This document shows, piece after piece, positions 49,701-52,700 of a stretch of 64,000 bases of DNA. Within the stretch, counting starts at the first letter, position 1. The number at the start of each line of letters is the position of its first letter. The position numbers were made by a program. Source of the stretch: Escherichia coli (GTDB lineage Bacteria; Pseudomonadota; Gammaproteobacteria; Enterobacterales; Enterobacteriaceae); NCBI RefSeq assembly GCF_017348835.2, contig NZ_CP072315.1. One strand, 5' to 3'.

Positions 49701-52700
49701 GGCTCGATAGCGTTACCGGAGAGATTTGATCTTTTCTCTGTAACTCGCAATACTGTTTATACATACAGTATGAGAATTCGAGTGTAGCTATGTCTGTTAT
49801 CCTTGAGCACATTAGCAACAAGCCTTACGAAATGGCACCTTTTTTCAGTGATTTACTGAGCTGTGGAGTGATGAGTCCGTGCGCCGGGCATGAAGATAAT
49901 GAATTAAATTTGCATGAATATGTAGTCCGTAACCGCCCCTCAACCTTCTTTGTCAGGGCGGCGGGCCTCAGTATGATCAATGCCGGTATCAATGATGGCG
50001 CTATTCTGGTTGTGGATCGGTCTTTAACGGCACGACACGGCTCTATCGTCGTTGCGCTGGTGGATGGAGAGTTCACGGTAAAGATCTTACACACGTATCC
50101 TGAGCTGCTTTTGATGCCTTCTAATCCAGCCTATAAGCCGATACGTGTAAATCCCGAATCCCTTGAGATATGGGGCGTCGTCACCTTTGCACTGAATCAG
50201 TTTAGCCATGTACATGCACGTTGATATTAACGGGGCCTATGCGGCATTTGAGTGTGCGATGGATCCCAAGCTGGCAAAAAAGCCGCTCATCATAGCCAGC
50301 AATAACGATTCGTCCGTCATTGCAATGAATAAACTGGCTAAAAGCGTTGGTATTAAGCGTGGGACCCCAATTTTTAAGTGCAGGGATTTGATTCAGCAAC
50401 ACCAGATCGAAGTCCGGAGCTCTAACTTTACTTTGTATGAAGACTACTCAAATCGCTTCCATGAAACGCTGGAAAGCTTCGCGCCTCAATCGAGTCGATA
50501 TAGCATAGATGAAAATTTCATGTTATTGAAAAACATGAACAAGATAATAGATTATGAAGATTACGGCCGGTTGATCAGAAGTACACTTCTTCATAATCTG
50601 TCCCTTACCTGTGGTGTGGGGTGTTCAAGCACCAAAACCCTGGCTAAATTATGCACCTATGCGAGCAAACGATGGGCAGCTACAGGCGGGGTTGTAGTTT
50701 TGACTGATCAGGCCAGGATCAGGAAGCTCCTGGGCCTTATCAGTACCAGAGAAATATGGGGTATTGGTCAAAAGATCAGTGAACGCCTGTCGGCTTTCGG
50801 GATCATCACTGCCGGTGATTTTTATAATAGCGACGTTCGCTTTTTACGTAAAAGCTTTGGCGTTGAAATCGAGCGTACCTGGCGGGAACTGCATGGCGAA
50901 CCATGTTTCCGGCTGCATGAATCCCCTCCTGTCCGGCAACAGATTATCGTTTCCAGAAGTTTTGGTCAGCGCCTTAATGAGATAGGCAAGCTACATGAGG
51001 CAGTTTCATTTTTTACCGCCCGGGCGGCAGAGCAGCTGCGCAAGGATGGCTCGTGGACCCGTCAAATCACAGTCTTCATTCAGAGCAGCAATTATGCGCA
51101 AGGTGAAAACCGCTACAGCAATTGTGGTATCGAGCCGCTTACCGCTACACAGGACACCCGCGATCTGGTTGATGCAGCCATGACCATCCTGAACCGCATT
51201 TACAAACCCGGGATAGCGTATGCGAAAGCTGGGGTAATGCTCTCCGCTATGACTGACGGCACAGAGCAACTCAGCCTGTTTGATGAGCGCCCGGCCAGGC
51301 CTGGCAGTCAGGCACTGATGAAAGTTATGGACCGGTTCAATAAAGAAAAGCGCGGAGCTCTGTTTTTGCTGGGGGAAGGCATTCAACAGGATTTTCGTAT
51401 GAAACAGGCCATGCTATCACCGAGATATACGACCCGCTGGGATGAATTACTCGTTGTAAAAGCGTAGCGGCCATGACCGGCATGGCCGTACTCATCAAAA
51501 GTGAAAGTAACTTTAGGCCCCGCGAGCTTTTTCGATTGCGCCCTGCAAAGTTGCTGCGTCCATAGCCCCGGGGATAAATGTGGTAGTCGCCGCATTCGGC
51601 TTTTTCATATTCATAATGATGAAGCCGGGTGTGCCGGTGATCCCAAGCGCTTCGCCCAGCTGCATGTTGCCGGAGATCACGTTTTCATATCGGTTTTTTT
51701 CCCTGTCAGAAAACGTGCTGTTAAACCCTGACTTATCCACCACAGTATTAAAGTCGCTGAGTTCGAATTTGCGTTGAGAGGTCATGAAGGTATGAGCCAC
51801 AGCCATCAGGTTGTTGTGGTATTTACGATAGGCTTCAGCACCGAAATTCTGATAGACGTGCAGACCCGTAGCGGCCCCCATGGCAGATACAGGTTTTGAA
51901 CCGGCAAAAATCGGGAATTCTTTAAAGAAGAATTTTACATCTTTGCTCTGATTCATTACCGATTCAACAACAGGTGTAACCCGCATGCAGTAAATACACT
52001 GATAGTCGAAGAACTCGATTACCGCGACGTCGGCGTCATCCGGGCCGATGTTTGGCGTCTCCTTGGTATCCAGCAGAGCTGGCGCATATGGAATTATTCG
52101 TTCCACTGAGGCACTTACGTTCTGATTTTCCAGCGCCTTACCTGCTTCCACTAAATAATGGGGATTTTTTACCAGGTAAGTAGCGGCAATTTTGCCAATT
52201 TCTTCCTCACTGAGCACCTTCGGTTTAAAATAAGTTGCCGCGATTAACGCCGAGGCAGCGGTAGCAATTACCGCAGAAATTAAAATCGTGGCCATCGGTT
52301 TTAAATAAAATTCTTTAGACATAGCTACCTTTATGCTTTTCAGCCTGTTAGTTATTAACCTGCGATGGATTATACTGGCCCGGTAAATCGGAATTATTCG
52401 TGAAACAATGCTTTTTGGAGATTAAAGGATGATTAGGCAGGGCTTTATACTCACAACCGCAATGCTTTTGAGTGGTTGTGGATATCATTTCGCAAACCAG
52501 GTAGATGCGTACGATCTAATGCCTCGTCCTGTTACAAATAAAAGGTTTCAGATAGTCCCTCCGGACGAAAGTATTCAGTCCAGAATGTTTTCAGGCCGTT
52601 TTGCTGATGGATTAGCAAAAAAAGGAGTCATTATTTCCACTCACCAGCCAGATTATGTGCTCAGGTTCCGAATGAGCAGCTCACAGGAGAACATGCAGTA

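Follow-up and report, generated by a model that had tools for sequence, protein, structure and literature searches.

Gene content and plasmid setting of the locus

The window analysed here, a stretch of 64,000 nucleotides of Escherichia coli DNA taken at its full length, carries a umuD-like gene with a umuC-like gene directly downstream on the same strand, the two ORFs overlapping by 17 nt. The features of the locus are given below.

49726-49731, plus strand: candidate -35 hexamer TTGATC, within the conserved block ATTTGATCTTTTCTCT
49749-49754, plus strand: candidate -10 hexamer AATACT, with a 17-nt spacer from TTGATC and reaching into the left arm of the LexA box
49751-49770, no strand assigned: LexA operator (SOS box) TACTGTTTATACATACAGTA, matching the consensus at 18/20 positions and conserved in orthologues
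49790-50224, plus strand: umuD-like gene, 144 aa, putative self-cleaving S24 subunit (PF00717, NF007621, UmuD alignment)
49862-49867, 49970-49972 and 50081-50083: codons of the umuD-like gene for Cys25-Gly26, Ser61 and Lys98, respectively
50208-51467, plus strand: umuC-like gene, 419 aa, Y-family polymerase (IMS/IMS_C/DUF4113, NF002955, motifs)
50223-50225, 50235-50240, 50508-50513 and 51267-51281: codons of the umuC-like gene for Asp6, Ala10-Tyr11, Asp101-Glu102 and QLSLF, respectively
51468-51488, no strand assigned: GC-rich hairpin CGGCCATG-ACCGG-CATGGCCG, directly after the umuC stop codon

The family of the umuD-like product was established from domain models and from alignment to UmuD. 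The Pfam Peptidase_S24 domain (PF00717) covered residues 21-131 of 144 (E 2e-24), and the NCBIfam model NF007621 scored 129.8 bits (cut-off 110); the scores of the HumD and LexA models were under their cut-offs. The alignment with the E. coli UmuD chain 8gmt_B, from the UmuD/UmuD' structures, spanned residues 16-134 (E 1.3e-31). Matches to LexA were confined to the C-terminal domain, the protein being an S24 domain without the N-terminal DNA-binding domain. The scissile bond is present, as Cys25-Gly26 in FSDLLSCGVMSP aligned with Cys24-Gly25 of UmuD in FSDLVQCGFPSP. The dyad residues Ser61 (in GLSM) and Lys98 (in FTVK) correspond to Ser60 and Lys97 of UmuD and were kept in all clade members examined. 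The UmuD proteins of IncHI1/2 additionally carry a 6-aa C-terminal extension that arose by loss of a stop codon and reads SHVHAR in the present protein. Two other identities, a pre-cleaved subunit of the HumD type and a repressor of the LexA/CI type, were rejected from the arrangement of the genes, the family scores and the length of the protein.

The umuC-like product contained the IMS (PF00817, E 3.9e-31), IMS_C (PF11799, E 3.2e-20) and DUF4113 (PF13438, E 1.8e-17) domains and scored 464.7 bits with NF002955, for which the cut-off is 431. All pol IV models gave at most 121 bits against cut-offs above 250, which sets the protein apart from DinB/pol IV. Asp6, the steric gate Tyr11, Asp101 and Glu102 each had their exact counterpart in E. 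coli UmuC, and the clamp motif QLSLF (residues 354-358) was matched there by QLNLF. A PDB sequence search returned no UmuC-family structure, the best matches being pol IV, Dpo4 and pol iota at E ~1e-16 or weaker. The identity of the two proteins to characterised homologues was 41-49%, and their NCBIfam scores exceeded the cut-offs modestly. The initial annotation had described a umuDC-type operon with a LexA box, in which a umuD-like product keeps the Cys-Gly site and the Ser/Lys dyad and an overlapping umuC-like gene keeps the catalytic Asp and Asp-Glu motifs; every one of these structural elements was present and aligned with residues that have been defined by experiment in UmuD and UmuC of E. 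coli.

The hairpin behind umuC falls in the gap at which umuC and the DsbA-family gene converge. Its RNA fold reached -18.8 kcal/mol (z-score -2.67 versus shuffles); it has no plus-strand U-run, and the terminator scan was silent. It is possibly a terminator or a transcript-end structure. The two divergent ORFs upstream (205 aa and 118 aa) and the 203-aa ORF downstream had no match in either Pfam or NCBIfam. A three-gene operon of the ImpCAB type was rejected on gene layout, the 19-nt gap between the box and the ATG being too short for an impC-like ORF.

The locus very probably represents the umuDC-type (pol V-type) operon that belongs to the backbone of a conjugative IncHI2 multiresistance plasmid. 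It was 100% identical to IncHI2A plasmid regions annotated umuD/umuC. In PLSDB, 945 plasmids carried the locus at 95-100% identity, and at least 80% of the query was covered in 899 of them. Among complete E. coli genomes it was found in 229 of 5,426 (~4%), at 228 plasmid and 4 chromosomal places. The locus is already known, with PGAP annotation as umuD/umuC, and is real but ordinary. Papers on IncHI2 plasmids name it mucAB or umuC and use it as a backbone marker, mucAB being the name in R478-type papers (PMC4855149). In the searchable literature we found annotation-level mentions of the IncHI1/IncHI2 umuDC or mucAB genes and no functional study of them.

The description of the plasmid as loaded with resistance genes also held, the replicon being an IncHI2 multiresistance one. 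A multiresistance region of ~45 kb lies ~1.7 kb from the umuDC operon, and the resistance genes of the window include sul1, aadA16, dfrA27, arr-3, aac(6')-Ib-cr, floR and tet(A), as well as strAB, sul2, mph(A), aac(3)-IId and blaCTX-M-55. Other LexA-boxed functions of the plasmid are IntI1, the ISCR2 transposase and a backbone operon at 359-1481. The position of one resistance gene is given separately.

11974-12426, same window as umuDC: arr-3 (Arr-3 rifampicin ADP-ribosyltransferase)

Because of arr-3, a readout of rifampicin-resistance mutations with the whole plasmid would be confounded, and since aac(6')-Ib-cr is encoded in the window, the dosing of ciprofloxacin would be affected as well.

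The LexA operator and the promoter region

The operator TACTGTTTATACATACAGTA matched the LexA consensus TACTGTATATATATACAGTA except at two spacer positions (2 of 20), and its CTGT-N8-ACAG core occupies 49753-49768. The end of the box is separated by 19 nt from the umuD ATG (49790), and its start lies at -39. Counted from the end of the core, the distance to the ATG is 22 bp, in agreement with the near-perfect LexA box that had been placed 22 bp upstream of the umuD-like gene. Both the half-sites, TACTGT/ACAGTA, and the -39 position were identical to those of the umuDC box of E. coli MG1655. A repeat search with a minimum length of 8 did not recover the operator, since each arm measures just 6 nt.

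A block of ~75 nt that includes TTGATC, the box and the sequence leading up to the ATG was conserved between IncHI2 and IncHI1B, and the distal intergenic DNA was unalignable. The box was kept at -35 to -39 in five diverged loci, namely an IncHI2 variant, IncHI1B and three further relatives (L009, L011 and L012; UmuC identity 67-72%), the last three carrying a CTG-N10-CAG box at -35 to -37. In the IncHI2 variant, pME-1a, substitutions flanked the box on both sides and none fell within it.

It was considered whether the palindrome is a LexA operator at all or rather a chance match, or the site of another protein, in which case the operon would be constitutive or otherwise regulated. LexA binding at the box is a prediction, and the arms of the IncHI1B orthologue, CTGG/CCAG, are less canonical. 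We nevertheless regard this explanation as very unlikely. Matches of such quality are expected zero times by chance in 64 kb, none with at most 3 mismatches having arisen when the window was shuffled 100 times with its dinucleotides preserved, and the half-sites and their position coincide with those at E. coli umuDC. In all orthologous loci examined with an intact upstream region, the box was moreover retained between diverged flanks. The CTGT-N8-ACAG pattern occurred 6 times in the 64-kb window versus 0.6 expected, and the other sites lie at promoters that include those of ISCR2 and intI1, the latter being an SOS-controlled promoter. For the ISCR2 promoter, LexA binding was demonstrated by EMSA (preprint 10.1101/2025.11.21.689736).

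The sequence ATTTGATCTTTTCTCT was invariant between IncHI2 and IncHI1B in an otherwise unalignable intergenic region, and TTTGATCTTT was kept in L009 and L011 too. TTGATC is also found at E. coli K-12 umuDC, where it stands 17 nt before the LexA box. By direct reading, the candidate -10 hexamer AATACT matched TATAAT at 4 of 6 positions; an alternative candidate is TACTGT at 49751-49756, with a spacer of 19 nt. Under either choice, LexA bound at the box would occlude the -10 element and the transcription start. A consensus promoter scan of 49400-51800 with a threshold of 9 of 12 positions gave no sigma-70 match upstream of umuD, and its matches were exclusively intragenic and at chance frequency. 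The scan was silent on the candidate promoter because the latter matches at 8 of 12 positions, below the threshold. The promoter assignment is thus a proposal drawn from conservation and not from the scan. The promoter hexamers are weak, and the Shine-Dalgarno sequence is poor.

Selection on the operon and its predicted mutagenic activity

The raw pN/pS values in the comparison with IncHI1B were 0.15 for umuD and 0.13 for umuC, with 0.19 for the neighbouring DsbA-family gene. Raw values were used since synonymous sites are saturated between IncHI2 and IncHI1B (pS 0.69-0.77) and a JC-corrected dS is not computable at such sites. Within IncHI2, umuD showed 0 nonsynonymous versus 9 synonymous changes. 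Purifying selection on both genes is strong. Together with the conservation of the operator, it argues for a working, LexA-repressed pol V homologue.

These data also bear on the possibility that the genes are decaying passengers, that is, inactive remnants in the backbone. Truncated or fragmented copies do exist in a few plasmids (H73, with 40% coverage, and H34/H41, in 3 pieces). Nevertheless, both ORFs of the window are intact and every catalytic residue is kept, and the low pN/pS across saturated synonymous divergence, the retention of at least 80% of the region in most plasmids of the PLSDB set and the uniform 419-aa length of the UmuC orthologues in full-length relatives make such decay extremely improbable. 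Outside this group, tblastn matches in non-IncHI plasmid lineages were all below 60% identity, with 43-49% among the matches listed.

For the working operon the following course of events is proposed. In the unstressed cell, a host LexA dimer would occupy the palindrome at 49751-49770, cover the -10 element and the start site and thereby keep the operon off; the promoter so repressed would be of a weak sigma-70 type. DNA damage, including that caused by antibiotics, would produce RecA-ssDNA filaments and trigger LexA self-cleavage, upon which both overlapping genes would be co-transcribed and co-translated. On RecA*, the dimer of the 144-aa UmuD-like protein would cut itself between Cys25 and Gly26 through the Ser61/Lys98 dyad. 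The shortened dimer would then join the 419-aa Y-family polymerase, RecA-ATP and, via QLSLF, the beta clamp in low-fidelity lesion bypass. LexA binding, RecA-dependent cleavage, polymerase activity and a net rise in host mutation rate are all predicted by analogy with UmuDC, MucAB and RumAB, and the mutator effect in particular is extrapolated from homologues that are 45-49% identical. Precedents exist in MucAB, in RumAB and in the pol V homologues of Acinetobacter, all of which are active mutagenic polymerases requiring RecA and UmuD-type cleavage (PMC9262582).

Residue 10 of the polymerase is Ala throughout the clade, versus Phe10 in UmuC, and residue 14 is Phe, versus Cys14 in UmuC. Changes at F10 of UmuC strongly alter fidelity and mutagenesis, and F10L results in a more faithful pol V (PMC3401427). 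As Ala10 replaces Phe10 beside the steric gate, the mutagenic strength is not to be extrapolated from UmuC. A possibility that deserves serious consideration, although we would not call it probable, is that the operon is functional and LexA-controlled and that its native expression or activity is too low to raise the host mutation rate measurably. The cause could be weak signals, repression of a plasmid-encoded or H-NS type, slow UmuD cleavage or higher fidelity. The selected role would in that case be damage tolerance, meaning survival of the plasmid and the host after DNA damage or single-stranded conjugative entry.

A precedent is provided by rumAB of R391, which is a potent mutator when subcloned and poorly mutable in the native element, where element-encoded repressors can override LexA control (PMC8460599). 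The whole R391 raises mutagenesis by just 31-38% in umuDC+ hosts (PMC9262582). The weak promoter and Shine-Dalgarno signals of the IncHI2 umuDC, the clade-wide Ala10 and the heading 'plasmid stabilisation', under which the IncHI2 genes are filed instead of mutagenesis (PMC4855149), are consistent with a low mutagenic output. Extra regulation similar to that of R391 may also apply to the IncHI2 umuDC by analogy; against this, no second operator or repressor gene was evident beside the operon. The mucAB operon of pKM101, similar in layout and with Met10, likewise speaks against a low output: it is strongly mutagenic from the native plasmid, as is known from the Ames strains.

A separate proposal is that the IncHI-type pol V is a biochemically distinct variant, defined by the clade-wide Ala10/Phe14 and by the UmuD extension of IncHI1/2; we consider it speculative and rather unlikely. 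Should Ala10/Phe14 affect the selection of sugar or base, in the way the F10L change of UmuC does, the polymerase would have an unusual fidelity or ribonucleotide-incorporation profile. Such an enzyme would be co-induced with IntI1, the ISCR2 transposase and the backbone operon at 359-1481 on very common resistance plasmids.

If the operon is active, each recipient of the plasmid would gain a second SOS-inducible error-prone polymerase beside a large resistance region, and the emergence of mutational resistance under quinolone or beta-lactam stress could speed up. In Salmonella, E. coli and Enterobacter, IncHI2 plasmids rank among the main vehicles of resistance genes such as ESBL, mcr and oqxAB. 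The concept itself has entered the textbooks through mucAB, rumAB and impCAB, and the genes are annotated as a matter of routine.

Comparison with known systems

The IncHI2 operon shares with chromosomal E. coli umuDC the two-gene order with umuD first, a single LexA box with TACTGT/ACAGTA arms at -39 and the upstream TTGATC. At the protein level, the Cys-Gly site, the Ser/Lys dyad, Asp6, Tyr11, Asp101-Glu102, the QLxLF motif and the C-terminal DUF4113 domain are common to both. The differences include the identity of 41% to UmuD and 47.6% to UmuC, a gene overlap of 1 nt in E. coli versus 17 nt here, Phe10/Cys14 versus Ala10/Phe14, and the SHVHAR extension and plasmid location of the IncHI2 genes.

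With rumAB of the ICE R391 (polV-R391) and other pol V homologues encoded on mobile elements, the IncHI2 umuDC has in common that a pol V homologue is carried on a conjugative resistance element. The R391 polymerase is error-prone, LexA-regulated and activated by the host RecA (PMC9262582, PMC8460599). In contrast to the IncHI2 locus, at which an equivalent site or gene was not evident, rumAB is also repressed by SetR and CroS.

The closest relatives were found in IncHI1 (R27 type) plasmids, in IncHI-like plasmids of Lelliottia and in contigs of environmental origin, which belong to the same clade (UmuC identity 84% for IncHI1B and 67-78% for further relatives). They share the synteny with the convergent DsbA-family gene and the 203-aa lipoprotein gene, the N-terminus MYMHVDINGAYAAFE and the position of the box. 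The IncHI1B box has symmetric CTGG/CCAG arms and matches the consensus more weakly than the IncHI2 box. In the distant IncHI-like relatives, the umuD stop codon lies 1 nt before the umuC ATG, without overlap and without the UmuD extension.

The mucAB operon of the IncN plasmids R46/pKM101 (pol RI) is, like the IncHI2 operon, a plasmid-borne, LexA-boxed and overlapping umuDC homologue, with a gene overlap of 13 nt and a box at -35. MucA cleaves at Ala-Gly, as opposed to Cys-Gly here, and MucB has Met10 where the IncHI2 protein has Ala10. The identity to MucA and MucB (47.6% and 45.3%, respectively) is no closer than that to the chromosomal UmuDC. On these grounds, the IncHI2 operon belongs to a lineage of its own and is not orthologous to mucAB of pKM101. 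Judged by its sequence, it falls outside mucAB sensu stricto and impCAB, and the name 'mucAB' for IncHI2 is a label of analogy.

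Operator and layout of the IncHI2 umuDC operon

The locus consists of two overlapping reading frames preceded by a LexA-type palindrome.

Features of the umuDC locus in the window
49726-49731: candidate -35 hexamer TTGATC (predicted), followed by a 17-nt spacer
49749-49754: candidate -10 hexamer AATACT (predicted)
49751-49770: LexA box TACTGTTTATACATACAGTA, a 20-bp palindrome read from the sequence
49790-50224, same strand as ORF2: ORF1, umuD-like gene, 144 codons
50208-51467: ORF2, umuC-like gene, 419 codons, overlapping ORF1 by 17 nt

The initial annotation described a near-perfect LexA box before the umuD-like gene, and this description held. 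TACTGTTTATACATACAGTA departs from the gammaproteobacterial LexA consensus at two of 20 positions, both within the AT-rich spacer, and 100 shuffles of the window that preserved its dinucleotides yielded no LexA site with three or fewer mismatches. The CTGT-N8-ACAG core was present in six copies in the window versus 0.6 expected. The arms of the E. coli K-12 umuDC operator (from MG1655) are identical to those of the IncHI2 box and lie at the same −39 offset from the umuD ATG, and a TTGATC hexamer is found upstream of the box in both operons. Because the box region is conserved and the arms, offset and TTGATC match K-12 umuDC, we infer a weak sigma-70 promoter before umuD, whose −10 element and start site would be covered by LexA. 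This promoter was not picked up by a consensus scan, and the exact hexamers are therefore given as candidates.

When the IncHI2 locus was compared with its orthologue on the IncHI1B plasmid p08-4425.1 (L004), the distal intergenic DNA was unalignable, while a block of approximately 75 nt adjoining umuD was kept, containing ATTTGATCTTTTCTCT, the palindrome and the stretch preceding the ATG. In the IncHI2 variant plasmid pME-1a, substitutions directly flank the box on both sides and none fall inside it.

Boxes upstream of umuD in relatives of the locus, with offsets from the umuD ATG
L004 (IncHI1B), 2545-2564: TACTGGTTAAATATCCAGTA, −38
L009: TACTGTTTATATATACAGTT, −37
L011: TACTGTGTATATAACCAGTA, −35
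L012: TACTGTGTTTATGTACAGTG, about −37 from the true umuD start (the gene caller picked an internal start, shortening the predicted protein to 77 aa)

The IncHI1B operator carries symmetric arm changes (CTGT to CTGG, ACAG to CCAG); these preserve the palindrome, depart from the consensus and could weaken LexA repression there. The IncHI2 operator is intact and conserved, its putative function resting on comparative evidence. In the metagenomic contig L010, the left half of the box (about 95-125) is swapped for unrelated sequence (…GGGAAGACCCTTATATATACAGTT) some 100 nt from the contig end; this is either an artefact of assembly or the breakpoint of a rearrangement or insertion within the operator. 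In L012, an SRAP gene (PF02586, YedK-like abasic-site peptidase; 1763-2431) immediately precedes the LexA box and umuD.

Encoded proteins and their conservation

ORF1 matched Peptidase_S24 (E = 2e-24), the NCBIfam model of the pol V autoproteolytic subunit (129.8 bits, cut-off 110) and the sequences of E. coli UmuD and UmuD' from crystal and cryo-EM structures (E = 1.3e-31). Aligned to UmuD, its Cys25-Gly26 corresponds to the Cys24-Gly25 scissile bond, Ser61 to Ser60 and Lys98 to Lys97. ORF2 comprises IMS, IMS_C and DUF4113 domains and scored 464.7 bits on the UmuC model (cut-off 431), with every pol IV model far under its own cut-off. It keeps Asp6, the steric-gate Tyr11 and Asp101-Glu102, and has a QLSLF beta-clamp motif where UmuC has QLNLF. 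All sequence features listed in the initial annotation, i.e., the operator, the reading frames, the Cys-Gly cleavage site with its Ser/Lys dyad and the catalytic Asp and Asp-Glu of an overlapping Y-family polymerase gene, thus proved real.

In IncHI1/2 (junction at 50205-50224 in the window), UmuD has six extra C-terminal residues (SHVHAR) and umuD overlaps umuC by 17 nt. In 67-72%-identical relatives, the umuD stop lies 1 nt before the umuC ATG (L009, L011 and L012 at 2990-3003; L010 at 553-566). Stop-codon loss in IncHI1/2 produced both extension and overlap.

The IncHI1B orthologue shares 81% (UmuD) and 84% (UmuC) identity, with synteny kept. Between the two lineages, pS was 0.69-0.77 (saturated) and pN about 0.10, giving pN/pS of 0.15 for umuD and 0.13 for umuC, with similar values for the neighbouring DsbA-family gene. 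Within IncHI2, the umuD differences were nine synonymous and no nonsynonymous. A database search returned more 419-aa UmuC relatives (67-78% identity) on large contigs sharing the DsbA and lipoprotein synteny; the SCG cleavage site, Ser, Lys and polymerase motifs were present in all of them. Such a pattern argues for a working gene pair and not a relic.

The DsbA-family gene (51513-52322, minus strand) is convergent with umuC in all IncHI-type loci examined, and E. coli K-12 chromosomal umuDC is likewise followed by a convergent dsbB (L003, entry coordinates 2101-2301). The parallel is probably coincidental, because the gene in IncHI is part of a thioredoxin-fold cluster close to transfer genes. 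Two backbone ORFs divergent from umuD (48979-49596, minus strand, 205 aa; 48473-48829, minus strand, 118 aa) had no Pfam or NCBIfam match and are both conserved in IncHI1B. They probably lie outside the umuDC unit, because more distant relatives have other genes upstream.

Plasmid context and other LexA-like sites

The 2.2-kb umuDC region recurred at 100% identity in many plasmids of 210-300 kb from Salmonella, E. coli, Enterobacter and Klebsiella; two matching records that were inspected are typed IncHI2A, MOBH and MPF_F, with the genes named umuD/umuC by PGAP. In PLSDB, 945 records matched at ≥95%, 899 of them with a query coverage of 80% or more, and the region occurs in 229 of 5,426 complete E. 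coli genomes, nearly always plasmid-borne. The feature is thus the IncHI2 backbone umuDC operon, already annotated, widespread and not novel; umuC/mucAB serve as names for the locus as a backbone landmark in IncHI2 papers (PMC9599605, PMC4855149).

The window begins and ends in IncHI2 backbone (about 1-2645, and from about 48,050 onward). Between these parts lies an IS26- and ISCR2-rich multiresistance region with sul1, qacEdelta1, aadA16, dfrA27, arr-3, aac(6')-Ib-cr, intI1, floR, tet(A), aph(6)-Id, aph(3'')-Ib, sul2, mph(A), aac(3)-IId and blaCTX-M-55, which bears out the earlier placement of the operon on a plasmid rich in resistance genes. Positions 7896-48952 are colinear with plasmid p2016062-242 (99.985% identity), and the operon starts approximately 1.7 kb past the last IS26. 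Two class 1 integron genes bear on experimental design:

11974-12426, minus strand: arr-3, rifampicin ADP-ribosyltransferase
12523-13077, minus strand: aac(6')-Ib-cr (12523-13161 in the ORF listing, from an upstream GTG)

Owing to arr-3, rifampicin-resistance fluctuation assays are unusable with the intact plasmid; aac(6')-Ib-cr alters ciprofloxacin susceptibility, so ciprofloxacin induction doses need adjusting.

A LexA-type box, GACTGTACAAAAAAACAGTC (13339-13358), precedes intI1, with 10 nt between its end and the start codon (13369). It represents the known SOS regulation of the integrase of class 1 integrons, a second SOS-controlled function on the same plasmid. The box GACTGTATGTAAACACAGTA occurs twice in identical form. 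The copy at 21294-21313 overlaps a TAGACT −10 hexamer just before the ISVsa3/ISCR2 transposase gene (ATG 21331), and that at 25578-25597 lies at a truncated second ISCR2 copy, after floR-lysR. LexA binds the ISCR2 site in vitro, with weak induction (2025 preprint, 10.1101/2025.11.21.689736). A third strong site, TACTGTATGTATGTACAGCA (359-378, three consensus mismatches), lies in a backbone intergenic region approximately 205 nt upstream of the co-oriented ORFs 583-1044 (153 aa) and 1074-1481 (135 aa); neither ORF had a Pfam match, and together they may form an uncharacterised SOS-controlled backbone operon. The core match CTGTGCCGTCAGACAG (52931-52946), with a GC-rich spacer inside a 203-aa ORF (52429-53040), is most likely due to chance.

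Working model and comparison with known pol V systems

The working model follows the pol V paradigm of UmuDC, MucAB and RumAB (PMC8460599, PMC9262582). LexA would keep IncHI2 umuDC repressed until DNA damage generates RecA* and LexA is inactivated; the UmuD-like dimer would then cut itself at Cys25-Gly26, and UmuD'2 and the UmuC-like subunit, acting with RecA-ATP and the beta clamp, would perform translesion synthesis of low fidelity. What the analysis observed is the genes with their residues, the operator, the conservation and the plasmid context; LexA binding, cleavage and polymerase activity, along with how large any mutator effect would be, are predicted from the paradigm. The initial observation was confirmed and its interpretation is supported by the genes, residues, conserved operator and plasmid context, the mutator effect itself being what we infer. 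No experimental study, biochemical or genetic, of IncHI-lineage umuDC (Ala10/Phe14 type) was found in the searchable literature.

The IncHI2 proteins share 41% and 47.6% identity with E. coli UmuD and UmuC, and 47.6% and 45.3% with MucA and MucB. All non-IncHI plasmid lineages retrieved by tblastn were <60% identical (those listed, 43-49%). Since every testable defining feature was found, the pair is assigned to the UmuD and UmuC families as bona fide members, in a separate IncHI-type lineage. Given the identities to MucA/MucB and the <60% values, "mucAB" reads as a label of analogy, not of orthology.

Across the IncHI-like clade (P0001-P0009; window 50235-50252), the UmuC N-terminus reads DING-A10-Y11-A-A-F14-E, whereas E. 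coli UmuC has DVNA-F10-Y11-A-S-C14-E, i.e., Ala10 and Phe14 in place of Phe10 and Cys14. Position 10 is of consequence: the F10L substitution makes UmuC more faithful and lowers mutagenesis about 17-fold (PMC3401427). The strongly mutagenic MucB carries Met at this position, so that variation there has precedent. Next to the steric gate, Ala10 and Phe14 may compensate for each other as an Ala/Phe swap. As a caution for the predicted mutator effect, the potent pol V encoded by R391, the ICE carrying rumAB, is nearly silent in its native element owing to extra repressors (PMC8460599), and whole R391 in umuDC+ hosts increased mutagenesis by only 31-38% (PMC9262582).
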